Shown here one piece after another: positions 9,850-57,915 of a stretch of DNA of 64,000 bases. Location of the stretch: NCBI GenBank assembly GCA_951406725.2, contig OX597814.1, positions 76,136,001 to 76,200,000 of the forward strand, given 5' to 3'. The first letter of the stretch is position 1; the number at the start of each line of letters is the position of its first letter. The position numbers and the translations under genes were made by a program. Below the pieces are notes generated by a model, which was not told where the DNA came from, did not search any database, and worked only from the letters and a program-made list of their open reading frames with translations. The DNA is from Octopus vulgaris. Taxonomy: Eukaryota.

Positions 9850-10071
9850 TACTTTTCCACTATAGACACAAGTCCTGATTTTTTTTTGGTTGGTGGGGGA
9901 GGGCCAGTTGAATAGATTGACCCCTGTACGCAACTGGTACTTAATTTATCGACCCTGAAAGAATGAAAGGCAAAGTTGACCTCAGCAGAATTTGAACTCA
10001 GAACATAAAGACTGACGAAATGCTGCTTAGCATTTCGCCCGACATGCTGATGATTCTGCCAGCTTGCCATC
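9850..10071 (-). mobile_element. tRNA-SINE family A (Nin-domain-like)
   Basis: Reverse strand: A box agctggcagaa, B box gagttcaaattc, Nin-like gcctttcattctttcagggtcgataaattaagtaccag. Confidence 0.85.
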
Positions 10072-10221
10072 TTTAACTGTCACAATATAGAAACATTTGT
10101 CATGGCACCGTCATACAATTTACAGACGCTAATATTTTTTATATTCATCAGGTGTCTTTAGGAAGTAGAACCTGGGTTTTACTTTCTAAAGTATTTTTCG
10201 ATCTTTTTATTATTATTATTA

Positions 10222-10272
<51 letters not shown>

Positions 10273-10557
10273 TCACTGCCTGGAATCAAACTCGGGATCT
10301 TGGGGTTAGTAACCCGTGCTCTTAACCACAACGCCATATGCCCATGGGCAATTGTGGAGTGAATTTTAAGGCTTATAAATCTAATATTTTCCTATCCTTC
10401 CTTAATACCGGTTCCCATATGCTATTCATATCTGCACTCGGTCTGCTTAGGAGGTTGTTGTGTCCTAACATATGTGCTGCTTCTTTTAGTTTTCGTATTT
10501 TCCAGTGGTGTTCTCTGTCTATTATTTTAACTTCATCCTACAGGGGGAGGTGGTCTC

Positions 10558-10947
10558 AACACTTCACAAATATCTCCTCTGGGAAAACCACCAATAGAAG
10601 AGAATATGACCAAAAACTGCGTGTACTCCATCCCATGCAGCTGCGGTAGGTTATACAAAGGCAAAACATGCCACTCCTTCAAAATAAGGGTAGACAAACA
10701 TCACAAAGCTGTGACATGAGGACATATTGATAAATCGGGTATAGCTGATCATGTATGGAAAAATGGAGACCACTTCTCCCTGTGGGATGAAATCAAAATA
10801 ATAAGAGAACACCACTGGAAACTACGAAAACTGAAAGAAGCAGCACATATGCTAGGACACAACAACCTCCTAAGCAGACTGAGTGCAAATATGAATAGCA
10901 TATGGGAACCGGTATTAAGGAAGGATAGGAAAATATTAGATTTGTAA
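10558..10947 (+). pseudogene. PLE GIY-YIG endonuclease relic
   Basis: NCVYSIPCSCGRLYKGKT..KSGIADHVWKNGDH..WKLRKLKEAAHM..MNSIWEPVL, with a stop and frameshift. Confidence 0.85.
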
Positions 10948-10976
10948 GCCCTAAAATTCAATCCATATTTGCCCAT

Positions 10977-11048
10977 GGACATATGGTGTAGTGGTTAAGA
11001 GTGCAAGCTACTAACACCAAGATTCTGAGTTTGATTCCAGGCAGTAAT
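10977..11048 (+). other. tRNA-like Pol III promoter module inside the PLE 3' region
   Basis: A box TGGTGTAGTGG, B box GAGTTTGATTCC; second copy in the inverted arm at 10270-10345. Confidence 0.65.
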
Positions 11049-11130
11049 GAATAATAATAATAATAATGATAACAACAACAAGATCGAAAAATACCTTAGG
11101 AATGAGAACCTAGGTTTGAAATTTCCCCAA

Positions 11131-11176
11131 GATACCTGATGAAGGCTGGAGGGCATATCAGCCAAAACGTTGTGTT
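11131..11176 (+). ncRNA. Minimal type I hammerhead ribozyme motif (GAAA>AAAA)
   Basis: GATAC/GTGTT stem I, CTGATGAA, GGCTG/CAGCC stem II, palindromic ACGT stem III, GUU site. Confidence 0.7.
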
Positions 11177-11290
11177 AACAACAAATAAGATGAGGTTAAA
11201 TGTAAATAATGTAAATAATATACATAATTCCTCATCTCTTAAATATAGAACTGTATTTTTTATATTGTCTGTGAATTTTTCATGGGCCTA

Positions 11291-12560
11291 GCTAATACCT
11301 CTCTTGAAATTGCTCAATGATGTACAATATGGCTATAAAATGTTTGATAAGAGTATAAATCATCTCTTTTATATGGATGATTTAAAGCTCTTTGCAAAAA
11401 ATGACTAACAACTACAGGGCTTACTAGCAATTGTTAAACAATTCAGTGATGTCATCAGGATGCAATTTGGCCTCAATAAATATGCTAAAGCTACCTTTAT
11501 CAAAGGAAAAATGACAGAAACATCCAATGTTAATCTTGACCAGCAGAATGCCATACAGGAGTTATAACCAGTGGAGAGCTACAAATACCTAGGGGTATTT
11601 AAAAGTAATGAAATCAAACATTCAATGATGAGGGAAAGGATCAGAAGAGAATGTTATCAAAAGGTAAGGGCAAGACAGAGCTGAATGCAAGAAATAGGAT
11701 TGAAGCGATCAATACTTTATCCATACCACTTGTGACTTACAATTTCAATATCATTAACTGGTCAATTACTGAAATATGTAATCTTGACAGAAAAATACGA
11801 AAAATGCTGACAATGTAACAATTTTACCTGCCAAGAAAAGAGGGTGGCCATGGACTTTTACAACTGGAATTAACAATGAAGATTGCCACAATTGGCCTAA
11901 ACACCAAACTGAAAAACTCTAATGACTGAATGTTAAAACTTGTCTTAAAGCATGGAAACAAAAAAGCATCATACCCAGTAACAAAATAGGCAAAGGAATA
12001 TCTAAGTGAATTCTAAATGCAACAAATCTCAGAATTGGACATACTGGAAACAAGCACAGAAAACACTAAGTATATGAAAACTTGTGCTAAAACTGCTGCC
12101 TTAGATATTCTTAGTGATAAATGGCAAGAAAAATCTCTTAATGGCAAATACCCAAAGAGAGCTAATAATGCTGATGTTGACAAAACCCTTACTCATCAAT
12201 GGTTAGTGTCTTCTGACTTAAAATCAGAAACAGAAGGGTTTATCATAGCAGCCCAGTATCAATGCCTACCTACAAGGAGCTACCAGGCCAACATATTAAA
12301 GAATGGCAGTAGCCCAACGTGTCATGTATATAAACGACAAAATGAAACCATTGATCATATTGTCTCCATATGCAGTCTTCTTGTGCCTACAGAGTATCTC
12401 AACAGGCATAATAGAGCAGCACAGTATATTCACTGGGTAATTTGCAAAAACCTGGACCTGCCCCATCATAAAAACTGGTGGGAACTCAAACCACCTCCAG
12501 TGCTTGAAAATGATCACATCTCACTCCTCTGGAACTTCACCATTCAAACTGACAGAAAGA
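11291..12560 (+). mobile_element. R4/Dong-clade LINE fragment (RT 3' half, zinc knuckle, start of RLE)
   Basis: INHLFYMDDLKLFAK; YKYLGV; SETEGFIIAAQ; ETIDHIVSIC..RHNRAAQYIHW; LLWNFTIQTDR. Confidence 0.9.
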
Positions 12561-13450
12561 GGCTTGCAATACGCAAAAATATACCCTTATAAGATATGGA
12601 TTCTTAATACTGAAAAAGAAGAGAAGGTGGAGGGGATTAATAAGTGCAAAGGAGGTTGTATAATTAAACAGAACAAGTCTAGGGTTGTATATAAGGTACA
12701 AACGAAACAGGAAAAAATAACAAGGAAACAGGAAAAATGTTGCAAAACAGTTAGTCAAACTTTGAAGAAAAGAAGTTTCATTCAGTGTTTCTTCAAAGAA
12801 ACAAAACAAGTAAGGAACAGCAATGTCATCTGGCTATGGTTAAAGAAAGGATTACTAAAGAGAGAGTTAGAAGGATTGATTTTAGCCACTCAAGAACACG
12901 CTATGAGAATATTCTGGATTAAGAGAATGATAGATGAGAAGGACTGGTCACCCAAATACTGAATGTGCCTTGTATCAGAATTCTAGTTTAAAATGAATAC
13001 AGAAGAGCATAGGCATGTTAAAACAGTGGCAATAATTCTCTGGTACTTTTACAAGTGGTTTGATCTTTCATGTACAGGAAAGGGTTATGACCTTTCTATG
13101 AGAATAGAAATGAAAGTCTTTGAAAATGATGAAGTGAGGTTGTTATAGGATTTTCCATACAAAACGAAAGGTGAATGGAGCACATACTAGATATTGTAGT
13201 CAAGAAATTGATGTGGAATGACTATCTGATACCCAAGCCAACAAAAAAGAACAAAATTAGAATATTATAGTGACTTGAATAATGGAGTTCTCAGAGAAGT
13301 TGACAAGATCAAGATCTTGCCAATTATCTTTGGGACTGTGAGAATTGTGAAGAATTTGAGAATAAACCTTGGAATGGTTGACTGTCTTAATATAGGAGTA
13401 GGTGCATAGCAGATATTTGGATCAAGAAGAATTATTTAGAAAGTCTTTGA
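12560..13450 (+). mobile_element. Older, different R4/Dong-like fragment
   Basis: WLWLKKGLLKRELEGLILATQEHAMR followed by a decayed RLE region. Confidence 0.65.
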
Positions 13451-13624
13451 TATAAAGAAAAGACAGATATAAACTGTTTGGAAGAACCTTGATAAGAAAA
13501 GGGACAAAAATGCCTCACATTGTAGACCATACAATAGGATACATAAATAAAAAATATGAACAATTACAAACCCTAAATGGGAAAATAAACAAAAAAGTTA
13601 TAGAGCAATGTAAATCATCTCTTA

Positions 13625-14155
13625 ATCATCATTTAACATCCGCTTTCCATGCTAGCATGGGTTGGACGATTTGACTGAGGGCTGGCAAATCAGATGGCTG
13701 CACCAGGCTCCAATCTTGATCTAGCAGAGTTTCTACAGCTGGATGCCCTTCCTAATGCCAACCACTCCGAGAGTGTAGTGGGTGCTTTTACGTGCCACCA
13801 GCACGTATTTTTCCTTCTAAAACTACTTGACTGGTACTTATATTGTTCCCAAAAGGATGAAAGGCAAAGTTGATTTCTGCAGGATTTGAATTCAGAATGT
13901 AAAGAATTGGAAGAGATACCACTCAGCATTTTGTCTGATATGCTAACAATTCTGTCAGCTCCCCACCCAAATGATAATGATGGTGACGATGATAACGATA
14001 ATAATAATAATCATCATCATCATCGTTTAACGTATGGTTTCCATCCTAGCATGGGTTGGACGATTTTGACTGAGGGCTGGCAAACCAGATGGCTGCACCA
14101 GGCTCCAATCTTGATCTGGCAGAGTTTCTATAGCTGGATGCCCTTCCTAACACCA
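13625..14155 (-). mobile_element. Two RTE 3' tails (13625-13805, 14010-14155) with a SINE A piece between
   Basis: Near-identical to the 49309-49500 tail ending in (GAT)n. Confidence 0.8.
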
Positions 14156-14179
14156 ATATTAATTACAATAATAATAATA

Positions 14180-14395
14180 ATCCTTTCAACTATAGGCATA
14201 AAGTTTGAAATTTTGGTGGAAAGGGATAGCTGATTACATTGACCCAGTGCTCAACTCACACTCATTTTATCGACACCACCCCGCTCCAAGGAAGAAAGGC
14301 AAAATTAACTGCAACAGAATTTGAACTCAGAACATAAGATTGACAAAATGCAGCTAAGCATTTTTCTCAGCATGCTAACAGTTCTACTAGCTCCC
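14180..14395 (-). mobile_element. tRNA-SINE family A
   Basis: Homology to 9850-10071. Confidence 0.75.
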
Positions 14396-14424
14396 CAAAC
14401 CAATACTACTACTACTACTACTAC

Positions 14425-14478
<54 letters not shown>

Positions 14479-14489
14479 TAATAATAATG

Positions 14490-14527
<38 letters not shown>

Positions 14528-14589
14528 GTAGTTATATCTACTGGACAATATGTAAACACTACAACATTAAAACTAACAATAAATGGTAT

Positions 14590-15299
14590 AAACATGTGCC
14601 AAACAAGGTACAAGACAGTGACCAGGCCACAATCATCTGGGATACACTGGTTCAAACCAACAAAGAAATAAAAGCTAATCATCCAGACATAATAATCAAG
14701 GATTGGGGAAAAAAACACCTGCTTACTGATAGACATTGCAGTCCCGTCTGATCAAAATATTGTCCAAAAAGAAGTAGAGAAATTTTCAAAGTACAAAAAC
14801 CTTGAAATTGAAGTATTTAAGACATAGGGCATAAAGGTGGAAACAATACCAATAATAATTGGAGCATTGGGTATAATAAAAAAAGACATATGAATAAAAA
14901 TGTTGAAGCTACACTGGGATCCTCAACACTACACACTGTCCTAAAAATAGCCCTCCTAGTACCAGCCTACATCCTATGCAAAACACTATCCATTCAGTAA
15001 TATAACCTAAACAAAACAATCCACAAACACAAGACACATTTCATATAGCACTTATCCAATGAAATAAACTTCCACCAGCAACCCTAAAACTAACAAATTA
15101 CACACTCAACACACAATACAAACAATAATACAACAAAAGACTGCACCACACCTCAAGAGAAAAAAATCTGATACAATACAATACCAGGAAGAGTTTGCAC
15201 ACTCACAACAGAAAAGAACATACATTGCTGCACACACCCCAGCAACATAGAAGTGTAGTAAGTGATGCAGTAGAAATTTTCCTGAAACTACTAAATGTT
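14590..15299 (+). mobile_element. R4/Dong RLE domain and 3' UTR
   Basis: IWDTLVQTNKEIKANHPDIIIKD..LIDIAVP..ETIPIIIGALG; preceded by (TAA)n, ends in (GAA)n. Confidence 0.85.
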
Positions 15300-15500
15300 G
15301 AAGAAGAAGAAGAAGAAGAAGAAGAAGAAGAAGAAGAAGAAGAAGAAGAAGAAGAAGAAGAAGAAGAAGAAGAAGAAGAAGAAGAAGAAGAAGAAGAAGA
15401 AGAAGAAGAAGAAGAAGAAGAAGAAGAAGAAGAAGAAGAAGAAGAAGAAGAAGAAGAAGAAGAAGAAGAAGAAGAAGAAGAAGAAGAAGAAGAAGAAGAA
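15300..15500. repeat. Perfect (GAA)67 tract
   Basis: Direct reading, 201 bp. Confidence 0.98.
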
Positions 15501-16230
15501 TGGCAAGTATGTGGCCCATAGCAAACAAGCTGATGTCAACCAGAAACACACACACCAATAGTTACGAAGCTCAGGGCTAAAAGCAGAGAGTGAAGGTTTC
15601 ATATTAGTTGCTCAAGACCAAAGCTTATTAACCTGGAACTACCAAGCCAATGTGATAAAAAAATGGAGCTGACCCAAAATGTCGATCATGTAACATTGAG
15701 ATTGAATCTATAGACCACCTAATCTCAGGGTGTAGTCTTAGCACCTGTAGAATATAAAGCAAGACATGACAGAGTCGGCCAGTATTTACACTAGACAATA
15801 TGTCAGCATTATAAAATCAAAACCGCTGACAAATGGTATAAACACCATCCTGAAGCTGTGACTGAGGGAGAAAATGTGTCGATTCTATGGGACTTCCCCA
15901 TACATACCAACAAAACTATAAAAGCTAATAAACCAGATATTATTATAAAAGATCAGACGAAAAAGGTGTGTTTATTAATTAACATGAGTATTCTTTGCGA
16001 TCACAATATAGCGGCAAAAGAATTTGACAAGATCAGTAAATATAAAGACTTGCTAATAGAAATTGAAAAAAATGTGGCATCTCAAGGTGACTACTGTACC
16101 AGTGATTGTAGGATCTCTAGGAATGATAAAAAAAAGTACTGAAAATGATACCAGGCTTACCATCCCTACAGGAGGTGCAAAACATTGTGTTAACTGGAAC
16201 AGCTCATGTACTGAGAAGAGCATTATCGCT
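15501..16230 (+). mobile_element. 5'-truncated R4/Dong LINE (zinc knuckle + RLE)
   Basis: LKAESEGFILVAQDQ; KCRSC..ESIDHLISGC; RHDRVGQYLH; ILWDFPIHTNKTIKANKPDIII; VPVIVGSLG. Confidence 0.9.
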
Positions 16231-16499
16231 GTGAAAACAACATCCATTCATGAATTTATTTATTTATTAATTTTTTAAATACATATTTTACCTGTGAATT
16301 TGCATGTGTAATCTGGGAATGTATTTGTACCTACCCTTACCTATGGTCATAAATCTTGCATAATGACCAAAAGAATACTATCACGACTAAAAGTGGCTGT
16401 GGTGGGGTTTCCTCTGAAAGGTCTTCAGAGTAACGTCCCTTAATAGAGTGCATAGCTCAGAGATCAGAGATACTCCAAATGAGTCACTACTTCTCTGAA

Positions 16500-16740
16500 T
16501 TGAGAGATCCCAGTTTCAATACTGTACAAATGTGGTAAGAATGTCTTGGAAAAGAATCACTGGATAGGTTTTATGAGCAAAACCATCCAGCAGGTGACCT
16601 AGGAGTAGATAATGAACAAGATGGGTGGATAATATCCTTGAGTTTGGTTGGTCTCACTTGAGAGCAATTGGACAGGACCTGATAGAATGCATGCTTTGGG
16701 ACTCTACCCTCACAACACTCCCCAGAATAAATGAGCAAAG
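16500..16740 (+). mobile_element. RTE LINE 3' relic
   Basis: Decayed PSSR*PRSR..TRWVDNI resembles the RTE GRPRxRW motif. Confidence 0.5.
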
Positions 16741-17049
16741 ATGAGATGGGATGAAATTTAAACATAAGGCTAGTAATATCAAGGAGAGGGATTTAGTTGA
16801 TACCATCAATCAGCACCACTCACTGCTTCACTGGTTCTCTATTTCTTTTGAAAAGGTTTTATGTATATTCAAAGTAAAAATATAATTAAATTAACTAAAA
16901 CTGAATGGACACTTGAAAATAGAGAGGCAAACAAATGAATACATACATATATTATCTGTTTAATAACCTTTGCACAAAAAAATAATTCTCTTTATATCTA
17001 CAAGTTGTTATTTTGAATATTATTATTACTACTATAGTGCTCATCTCTA

Positions 17050-17308
17050 TAAGTTAATTTAAATTGTTTTTATTGTGAATTTTGTGTTTTTGAGTTCTTT
17101 CGTAAAGATTTTTTACAGAATAAAAGAGAAAAACAAAAATAAAAAACAGTGAAATTCTAAAATTTTCGTCTTCTGTATTTCTTCCCTGAGTTGTGGTGCC
17201 GGCGGTGGAAGTCTTGGCGGTGTTACTGCTGCTGCTGTTGTTGTTGTTGTTGGTGGTGGTGGTAGTGGTGGTACCACTAATGCATTTGTATGAAGAAGAC
17301 AATGAAAC
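17050..17308 (-). other. Candidate terminal exon of a host gene
   Basis: aatctcaacag/G acceptor, GC-richer unique sequence with ACC/AAC/AGC repeats, AATAAA at 17074-17069. Confidence 0.35.
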
Positions 17309-18784
17309 CTGTTGAGATTTTTGATAAACAAAATTTTATCCTTTCCATACACAAAAACAAATGTCGTTATTATAAATGACAAAATGTCAATAGAGTTTTG
17401 AATGTCATTGTTCTTGATGTCATTGTAACAGTTGATAAAGTGTAGCTTGCCATGTTACAGACATCTTATGTCTTTCATCCCCCAACTGTTCATTACCTTT
17501 ATGCTACATATTCCTCATCCAGAATCAGCACAACAATGTATGATAACAGTATACTTTTTGAATTACAAGTATAATCCACTCAATGGGATTCTTTCAGCTT
17601 CTATCTTCCCTATTTCACTTATAAAATAGTGGTCAACCCAAAGTTATAAAAAATAACTTTCTCTGAAGGTGACACATTGTGAGATTGAACCTGGGACTTT
17701 ATGGTTGCAAACTGAACCTCTTAATCATTCATTCACACAGTGTACTTACTCCCCTTGTAGTATATGAGGGGTTAATCTTTAAGTGTATATGAAGTCAATC
17801 TTTTATAATTCCAGTCACATCAATGATGTTCCAGCAGTGACCATATTGTCTTTTTATTTCTGACATTGTATTTCTAGGACTATAGTACCAAATGTGTCAT
17901 TCCCTTTGTGATTTGAGGGAGATTTGCTGCTATTTCTAGCAAGGCGAATGATCATTAAATTAATGCTAATGGTGCTGTTGTTGTTGTTGTTTGGCCTCAA
18001 GCCAGACTTGATTGAGGGGGTCTATCATGAAAACAGTAATCTAGCCTTAAACCATTCTCACTTTCTTTTTAAACAGATGATGCGGACACTGTCATTTTTG
18101 TTATTGATGATGATGGCAACAGTGATAACAAAGATGATGATGATGATGGTGATGACGATAATGATGGCAATGACAATGACAACAACGACAATGATGATGA
18201 AAGCACCACTGTCAATGATAATAATGATAATGAGAAGAGTGGCAATAACACTGATGGTATTGTGTTGAGTAACATCTGTCAGTGCTACTCCTTCAGGCCT
18301 TTTGAATTAATTTGGTAAATCCAACTTTAAGAATGTTGATGAGCTGCATTAAAAATACAAAAACCTGAGTTCAAAACTGGCCTGAGGAAGATTAAACCCA
18401 GGGCAGTCAACAATGATGGCAGAATTGACTGATTAGAACAGTGTCCAACCTACAAAACTTTGAAAAGTGGCAGTAATAATTCAGAAAATTAAGAAATTAA
18501 ATCACACATGCACTCCTACTATCTCTCCTTTCTGGTTGTTTATATTTTGCCCCATTTCATTTCTCAACATCATATTTCCAAATTAATCCAGTTTTTATTA
18601 ATAAGTTTTTATTAATATTTTTTAAATATTTTTTAAAATTACCAAATAAATAAAATTTATGTCTCCTACTTAGATTTGGGCACTACATGCTATAATAGTT
18701 TGCAGATCTAAAAATGCTAACTTCTTGTAATGATATCAAAATTGGGTCAGACATTGCAGTAAGTTTAGGTCAAGGGTTATAACA

Positions 18785-57219: not shown

Positions 57220-57745
57220 TTCATAAAGCAACTACAACAGCAACAAGAAAACCAACAGTTGCTGGAATTAATGTTGAAGAAGTCTGAAAATACTTCAAGT
57301 TCATACTCGCCAGACAGTGTAGCAAATTCAATTGAAGAATTCAGCTATAATTCAGAAGAGATTACCTTCTCTGCATATTTTCGAAGATATGAAGAAATCT
57401 TCAAAGAAGAGAGTAAAAGTTGGTCCAACAAGAAAAAAAGAACAACTACTTTTAAGAACACTATCAACTGCCAAACACGAAAAATACAGTAATTTTATTG
57501 TCAAAGAAGCTAGGTGAGATTTGTTTTGATGAAACAATATTTTATTGAAAATTTTCAGTAAAAGAACTTCTCAGTTCAACACTGGCTGGCAATATTTAAA
57601 TTTGGTCAAAGATGAAGATTTCTTCACCTATGCCAAAGTGGTTAACAGAGTGATTGTCAGAAATTCAAATTGAATGAGTTGACCCCAGACATGTTCATGT
57701 GTTTAATTTTTGTTCAAGGGCTTACTGCAAACAAAGATGCAGATC
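57220..57745 (+). pseudogene. Gypsy gag-like relic
   Basis: SIEEFSYN..TFSAYFRRYEEIF..LLLRTL..KFKLNELTPDMFMCLIFVQGL. Confidence 0.75.
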
Positions 57746-57747
57746 TA

Positions 57748-57915
57748 CGTTATTTACATTTGACAGATATTTGTCCTCATCTTGTTTGTTGTTAACACAA
57801 TGCTTTAGCTGATGTACTCTCAAGCCTTTGTCAGGTGTCTTGGGGAAATTTTGAACCTGGGTTCTCATTCCTAAGGTATTTTTCAATATTATTAATATTA
57901 TTATTATTCACTGAC
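57748..57915 (-). mobile_element. 3' tail of the 10146 PLE family with decayed HHR
   Basis: Reverse complement of 11050-11220. Confidence 0.85.

Follow-up and report, generated by a model that had tools for sequence, protein, structure and literature searches.

The insertion at positions 10133-11266 of the 64-kb stretch of Octopus vulgaris DNA analysed here, referred to below as the window, consists of two tail-out arms of one Penelope/Poseidon-type element inside one target site duplication (TSD). Both copies of the 13-bp TSD, TATTTTTTATATT, at 10133-10145 (+) and 11254-11266 (+), are exact, and neither strand of the window has a third, in agreement with the first-pass annotation of this DNA. 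The arms meet head-to-head at 10557/10558 and both point outwards. The left, inverted arm (minus strand) comprises, from the TSD inwards, a 3' part with the ORF start region that ends within the hammerhead just past CUGAUG(A) (10145-10206, 82% to the family unit by blastn), an (AAT)n run of about 21 units (10207-10268, by TRF), a tRNA-derived head (10269-10349) with changes in both its A box (10326-10336) and B box (10282-10292), and the final ~185 nt of GIY-YIG coding sequence (stop 10373-10375) with a 23-nt spacer (10350-10557). Its positions 10258-10557 are 96.7% identical to the family unit. The sequence shared by the two arms starts 229 nt ahead of the head, with 88.8% identity between 10237-10557 and 10766-11081, so that the recurrence of the module in an inverted arm, as originally proposed, holds except that the left arm breaks off within the hammerhead.

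The right arm (plus strand) opens with a 5'-truncated relic of a GIY-YIG endonuclease (10558-10947), recognised in translation (VYSIPCSCG..YKG), with a premature stop at 10717-10719 and a final TAA at 10945-10947; it received no Pfam call. It is followed by a 23-nt spacer (10948-10970), the 3' half of which resembles a decayed fold-back of the head and hairpins with it, and by the tRNA-Arg-like head that starts the pseudo-LTR (10971-11048; A box 10984-10994, B box 11028-11038 with C>T at 11032), delimited by its best tRNA match and by the pile-up of copy 5' ends. The first base of the head, 10971, lies 23 nt past the stop, and its tRNA-like position 1, 10977, lies 29 nt past it, close to the 30 bp given in the first-pass annotation for a tRNA-like unit behind the GIY-YIG relic. 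Further downstream are an (AAT/AAC)n run (11049-11081, seen in the sequence), the length of which varies between copies, and, upstream of the hammerhead, the ATG (11102-11104) of the 835-aa ORF of the family, assigned because the frame is open through RT and EN in the consensus and its N-terminal peptide aligns to protein P0009. The minimal type I hammerhead (11131-11176) was fitted manually, with the architecture described in the available text of PMC4209133. The ~32-nt PLE tail between two 3'-end sites (11223-11254), delimited by the distribution of copy ends and by its continuation into the ORF, is coding (ORF nt ~125-160), and the first four bases of the right TSD also match the ORF continuation. 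The first TTTT run after the head is at 11256, within the right TSD; the succession of (AAT)n, hammerhead and TTTT-free tail described earlier is thus present in full.

Two CpG sites of the consensus are mutated in the window copy, by C>T in the B box (11032) and by G12>A in the hammerhead core (11164), and this copy is therefore likely dead for both promoter and ribozyme. The 3' part of the module had been reported to recur near 57748-57915, and an independent headless copy, extending from the end of (AAT)n to the first 3'-end site (90%) and with a decayed hammerhead core, indeed lies at 57743-57908 (-). Among other repeats of the window, six copies of the dispersed family D20 (7665, 9947, 13841, 14276, 27123, 50751) include one just upstream of the left TSD. 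The region 11330-12590 (+), starting directly behind the right TSD, contains the decayed RT/C-terminal region of a non-LTR retrotransposon with a CxxC..HxxxxC knuckle, which we take to be Dong/R4-like. A 169-nt inverted pair (54189-54357/56412-56580, 99% complementary, 2 kb apart) encloses a minus-strand, Tc1/mariner-like transposase fragment (WPALSPYMNPIEHLW-like).

The genome searched comprised 2.8 Gb in 227 contigs. The family unit was built by walking upstream through long copies, and positions below are counted from the initial G of the head as +0. The unit measures 2,664 nt from head to head and consists of the head, (AAT)n, an ATG at +133, the hammerhead and tail inside the ORF, RT, and GIY-YIG. 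In the consensus there is a single ORF of 835 aa, the stop of which lies 23 nt ahead of the next head. A two-codon upstream ORF (ATG GCG TAG) at +11 to +19 precedes the main ATG and overlaps with the A box. The RT of one copy matches RVT_1 (E 1.4e-10); the Pfam GIY-YIG model gave no match, and the EN motif aligns to P0087 and P0009. For the 835-aa protein, identity to P0002 is 75%, to P0009 56-57%, and to the Anolis PLE protein P0087 37%, pairwise values by which its RT is a candidate member of the Penelope/Poseidon clade; no CxxC linker was seen, unlike in the control PLE family. Since the N-terminal peptide over the hammerhead (TPDxG..PKRCVNN) is kept in P0009, coding through the ribozyme is old.

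The pseudo-LTR adjoins the ORF start in 28 of 30 ORF-start loci and runs directly into it in about 26, while one locus (L416) shows the order EN, pseudo-LTR, ORF, pseudo-LTR. The module therefore consists of the pseudo-LTR and the initial ~160 nt of the ORF: it is not a separate SINE but part of an EN+ Penelope-like element, of which hammerhead and tail are coding parts. Further features of EN+ PLEs were found as well, namely an ORF with RT and C-terminal GIY-YIG, pseudo-LTRs from partial tandems, inverted 5' arms, and an optional tail of 30-40 nt; 65 of the 129 insertions are tail-out pairs. Copies diverge by ~4.5% outside CpG and by 16-28% at CpG. A genome search with the Anolis protein recovered the head-bearing family at 30/30 loci and no headless sister family, and a scan of metagenome contigs for relatives yielded one 12-residue match among 47 candidates. 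A query linked to EN (41 matches, 30 loci) is biased to EN-linked copies and was left out of the structure counts.

In six loci (L423, 4289-5333 of G000:C29:8133000-8142000, and L234, L238, L239, L249, L250), several of them on contig 29, the ORF start (~+408) is rejoined to ~+120 at short microhomology. The joint gives a headless, hammerhead-bearing unit of ~280 nt, tandem in L423, which looks like a retrozyme-like deletion derivative of the head-bearing PLE. Another tRNA-headed SINE family (L144-L170, ~335 nt each; 9,058 candidates, some copies 98% alike) is inserted into copies of the head-bearing PLE.

The tRNA-like unit of the first-pass annotation stands as a head with A and B boxes built into a PLE family and falls as a tRNA fold, as ARAGORN returned no tRNA for the window, for 60 loci, or, at -ps 80/90, for the family consensus. 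Rfam detected neither tRNA nor hammerhead, and head and hammerhead were therefore identified by fitting them by hand and by comparison. When the head was compared with 35 tRNA sequences from 30 loci of the genome, it was most similar to tRNA-Arg TCG/TCT (scores 62-57, z ~7; next Ala, 57), and tRNA-Arg is thus its candidate parent, as the best match in a set that covers only seven isotypes. The family consensus contains A and B boxes that we take to be canonical, the A box 13 nt behind +0. In tail-anchored heads the A box is intact in 25/40, the B box in 22/40, and both in 12/40; with mutation rates of 0.065 in the A box, 0.035 in the B box, and 0.057 elsewhere, the boxes are not clearly less mutated. 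Every head match continues into (AAT)n, and 15 of the 17 arms ending in (AAT)n have a partner arm, so that no independent SINE composed of head and (AAT)n was seen. As to the traits of tRNA-derived SINEs, a 5' head with A and B boxes is present and a cloverleaf is not, the (AAT)n run is internal and does not end the copies, and the 3' ends lie in coding sequence. A distinct non-autonomous lineage is not what we find either, as the same module is the pseudo-LTR of an autonomous element. At one locus (L176), tRNA-Cys genes and variants of them are clustered within 3 kb.

In the hammerhead of the window, stem I (11131-35/11172-76) encloses the core CUGAUGA (11136-42), followed by an extra A, and stem II (11144-48/11159-63); a palindromic ACGU replaces stem III, and the cut is predicted after 11171 (+202/203). 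The consensus fits the CUGANGA/GAAA/UH core with 5-bp stems I and II, and the window copy departs from it at G12. The core is intact in 38/75 short copies and in 16/44 ORF-linked copies, and the sole common non-CpG core variant is at the free position 7. The motif is an ordinary PLE hammerhead of predicted cleavage activity that does not set the copy ends. Non-coding tandem monomers bounded by cuts, as in retrozymes and Sm-alpha, were not found: the ends are off the cut site, and a tandem partner accompanies 1 of 76 head-starting arms.

That solo copies begin at the tRNA-like head, a point raised in the first-pass annotation, is borne out by several counts. In a search with the head only, 22 of 29 non-self matches start at 10964-10980. 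The first 66 matches of a head 20-mer on contig 1, taken regardless of context and with one locus (L097) counted twice, include 49 that start between -13 and +13, nine that start later, and eight that start earlier and extend at least 14 nt into the PLE body. For the first 73 matches of a tail 20-mer, 16 of the 23 arms reaching +15 start between -8 and +14 and the other seven at -176 or earlier; when partner arms and random stretches were added (130 arms), 31 of 44 unselected head-reaching arms started between -14 and +14. The density of starts at the head is 0.024 ends per nt vs. 0.002-0.009 in 11 other intervals. Genome-wide, a 20-mer from the sequence immediately before the head has 919 exact matches, one from the head 5,148, and one from the tail 6,545, so that the head exceeds the upstream sequence ~5.6-fold, while exact retention of the 20-mers is similar (upstream 23/52, head 25/50; head 16/56 in another set). 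Retention of 0.29-0.50 suggests ~10,000-18,000 heads and 2,000 upstream-bearing arms. A copy was present in 3/20 arbitrary 10-kb stretches.

Longer copies contribute to the same edge. Six of 30 ORF-start copies reach the head: three start at -2, +4, and +9 (one of them the query), and three extend to -56, -295, and -423 or beyond, which indicates that RNAs starting further upstream exist. In 5 of 12 hand-picked stretches a copy starts at +2 to +9 and runs 418-1,197 nt into the ORF (one again the query). Starts at -5 to -13 are mostly short fold-backs of the head. The 5' ends that seem to cluster at +81 and +241 are artefacts of aligning repeats, and identical junctions at L111 and L114, considered as propagation of a solo copy, look like segmental duplication. 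In seven loci (L239, L274, L275, L350; L088, L299, L341) 5' ends join the (AAT)n tails of two other repeat families, which suggests that cDNA ends anneal to (AAT)n runs.

No TTTT occurs in the 2,664-nt unit, which contains 30 AAAA runs. Shuffling of mononucleotides leads to an expectation of 4.6 (P 0.008) and shuffling of dinucleotides to one of 2.6 (P 0.06); for the ORF, synonymous permutation predicts 2.95 (P 0.025). Scattered fragments, one of which was a duplicate, gave 10 runs in 2,414 nt but made too small a control. In their place we took a second, low-copy PLE family of this genome (L352-L381, 60 candidates), which is Neptune-like, with a CxxC linker and no tRNA head, and is followed by (TA/TG)n. 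It has nine TTTT in 1,863 nt, where its own codons predict 9.4. With one control family, of more T-rich codons, and with most of the gap due to codon use, the deficit is suggestive only.

Since most copies begin at a tRNA-derived start signal, transcription by Pol III is likely, and the best joint reading, to which we lend a fair measure of belief, is that the RNA would start at the head, probably by Pol III. The likelihoods that we attach to it and to three other readings overlap slightly. The foremost of these, unlikely in our opinion, regards the head as a passive SINE relic and the templates as long Pol II or read-through RNAs, with a hairpin at the head start that stops or folds back RT. 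It draws on a hairpin over -13 to +27, which is the strongest 40-nt segment within the last 700 nt (-13.4 kcal/mol), counts against a Pol III start, and could itself cause breaks. The fold-back sequence at many starts, the RNAs that exceeded one unit (L416, L417), and RNA-seq that shows read-through only also favour it, as does the inverted partner found in 47 of the 76 head-starting arms; yet 28 of these arms are without a partner by an automatic rule that misclassed some (the remaining one is tandem). The observed peak at -1 to +9 is moreover not where a stall would be expected, namely at the foot of the stem on its 3' side (~+15-25). Starts at -1/0 mostly show fold-back sequence and not true upstream sequence, which was found in only three loci between -14 and -25. 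The hairpin of the window copy is no better than those of shuffles (z -0.34), and the absence of TTTT would remain unexplained by it.

The second alternative, which we consider improbable, also has the RNA start at the head, in this case from a Pol II internal promoter, with the tRNA-like boxes incidental or serving positioning only. Penelope of D. virilis has a TATA-less internal promoter in its pseudo-LTR according to the available part of PMC2377424, a capped RNA suits the need for a protein, and the 5' end of stem I has an AG with pyrimidines ahead of it, at the place where the D. virilis intron ends in the portion of PMC4209133 at hand. Against it stand the canonical A box 13 nt behind the start with a canonical B box after it, the unit without TTTT, and the finding of no GT..AG joint among the 15 listed of 57 joints. 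The RNA-seq data, namely about 6% of each of three runs of one study, compared with one copy, gave 11,731, 8,988, and 8,221 reads equally from both strands, of which 368, 288, and 295 run 5' past the head into inverted-head sequence. No pile-up of starts or ends and no discrete RNA was seen in these libraries, the type of which would hardly show one. The reads show longer read-through RNAs of genomic copies and are silent on the polymerase. RNA editing was rejected as the source of A>G and T>C mismatches, since most of them coincide with CpG positions at which the reference copy differs from the consensus.

Initiation at the head by Pol III, the reading that we favour, has to be considered together with the 3' ends. 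These form two clusters among 212 arms, at 250-263 and at 284-298, the two end sites being 30-35 nt apart, and a minor class lies in (AAT)n. Because the sites lie at ~+256-262 and ~+287-296 and not at the cut at +202/203, the ends fit the PLE tail formed by internal RT initiation, and by analogy with Poseidon_Ac such initiation, not termination or cleavage, is the likely origin of the ~290-nt copy length. A direct repeat of at least 10 nt flanks 26/65 tail-out pairs, 2/62 single arms, and 0/129 shuffled boundary controls. As many as 25 of 63 tail ends run at least 3 nt on into the ORF start vs. 3.3% by chance, a value that the ATT target preference of the enzyme could inflate. The self-cleaving, SINE-like RNA of ~280 nt envisaged in the first-pass annotation is not supported by these results, since the tail continues into the ORF with no TTTT terminator and the copy 3' ends are not at the hammerhead cut.

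The relationship of short and ORF-linked copies bears on the same question. Variants 69A and 171A are equally frequent in the two groups (15/46 ORF-linked vs. 35/95 short, and 9/46 vs. 22/78), and non-CpG divergence is alike (4.4 vs. 4.6%). Shared variants and age argue for common masters; no separate SINE lineage is seen. The loop variant 183A occurs in 13/76 short copies, 8/44 upstream pseudo-LTRs, and 0/45 ORF-linked 3' copies (P 0.002 before correction for 29 sites and selection), a weak hint that the short copies are closer to upstream than to downstream pseudo-LTRs. The weakest alternative, namely that solo copies are a self-propagating, self-cleaving SINE of ~280 nt borrowing the PLE enzyme, can point to this distribution, to most copies running head-to-tail for ~260-290 nt with the promoter, to the boxes and hammerhead cores that are intact in part of them, and to the 9/105 arms that start near the predicted cut (+200 to +212; post hoc P ~0.005, several junctions being microhomologous to the head), but we give it little credit in view of the shared variants and divergence, the tail ends continuing into the ORF, the lack of a stand-alone head-(AAT)n SINE among the copies seen, and the ends of solo copies at the very initiation sites past which Poseidon_Ac RNA must extend, as stated in the available text of PMC11167929.

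Under the Pol III reading, the RNA would begin at about +0, 13 nt ahead of the A box, and continue into the ORF. The PLE protein would cut both target strands ~11-13 nt apart, and cDNA would begin inside the RNA at ~+258 or ~+290, as in Poseidon_Ac in vitro. Run-off to the 5' end of the RNA would yield the abundant SINE-looking copies of ~260 and ~290 nt, whereas longer RNAs, on which cDNA is initiated in the pseudo-LTR that follows downstream, would yield the minority of EN- or RT-bearing copies, that of the window included. Two cDNAs, one per cut strand, may then join head-to-head between the TSDs by microhomology or by fold-back at the GCCC/GGGC start. The head itself probably arrived as a tRNA-derived, SINE-like insert. 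The translation of an uncapped RNA is a difficulty for this reading. A bolder version, which we offer as doubtful, is that a captured tRNA promoter would let Pol III make the whole 2.7-kb RNA, ORF included, that TTTT would have been purged from the coding sequence, that the 835-aa protein would be translated cap-independently, and that the 5' end of this RNA would give rise to ten thousand or more SINE-looking copies by internal RT initiation.

If true, Pol III initiation on a PLE, perhaps with transcription of its full length, would break the Pol II-only rule and provide a natural translated Pol III RNA, and one promoter would yield both the LINE-like and the SINE-like parts of the family. 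SINE-looking repeats could then arise as run-off copies of the 5' end of an autonomous element, which affects SINE counts in such genomes, and their sharp 5' edge would be a genomic readout of the internal-initiation model for PLEs. TRNA-derived SINEs named OK, OR1, and OR2 were reportedly described in octopus by Ohshima and Okada in 1994. Set side by side by description only, they resemble the present short copies in being tRNA-derived, of high copy number, and likely from the same animal group. The short copies may thus already be catalogued as a SINE (by Ohshima and Okada, or in Repbase/Dfam) without the link to a PLE.

The hammerhead, tail, inverted arms, and TSD are known PLE anatomy, as far as the accessible portions of the relevant reports go (PMC4209133, PMC8557442, PMC6765202, PMC7761336, PMC2377424). 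The new element of the finding is a tRNA-type head in the pseudo-LTR of an autonomous PLE, with copies starting there. A search of full-text literature found no PLE with a tRNA-type promoter, and octopus repeat papers give SINE and Penelope classes with no link between them in the parts available (PMC13282606, PMC8967140, PMC4758252, PMC3531059). According to the sections at hand of a review (PMC10886601), Pol II serves the autonomous retrotransposons, and promoters for Pol III occur only in short non-coding riders.

One close counterpart is Poseidon_Ac of the green anole (PMC11167929, in its available text), which shares with the octopus family an ORF with RT and C-terminal GIY-YIG, partial tandems, a hammerhead over the ORF start, two 3'-end sites giving a tail of 30-40 nt, and AT-rich targets. 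In vitro, its enzyme cuts both strands at AT-rich DNA and starts cDNA at two sites within the ORF start; RNA beyond these sites is needed and hammerhead cleavage is not. Unlike in Poseidon_Ac as described there, the pseudo-LTR of the octopus family opens with a tRNA-derived head bearing A and B boxes, which is also where most copies start, and TTTT is absent. The Anolis protein P0087 used for comparison is an Anolis PLE protein that we do not equate with Poseidon_Ac. The octopus hammerhead resembles the minimal type I hammerheads of metazoan PLEs, as described in the portion of PMC4209133 seen, in the short stem I, the unpaired base between A9 and G10.1, the G10.1-C11.1 pair, the palindrome in place of stem III, and opposite-strand copies 100-700 bp apart, but its stem II has 5 bp vs. 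7-8 bp there.

Small-RNA-derived Pol III promoters within a terminal repeat, with a proposed origin by SINE insertion, are also found in the TRIMp3 elements Cassandra, Helenus, and Ajax (PMC10886601, available part). TRIMp3 are short, non-autonomous LTR elements, the autonomous partners of which are argued in the same source to need Pol II, whereas the promoter-type head of the octopus family sits in the repeat of an autonomous, protein-coding PLE. The schistosome Sm-alpha and Sj-alpha likewise combine a Pol III-type promoter with a type I hammerhead behind it; in the accessible text of PMC6765202 they are non-coding tandem repeats excised by a canonical hammerhead, while the octopus hammerhead is minimal and coding, and the copies of its family end elsewhere.
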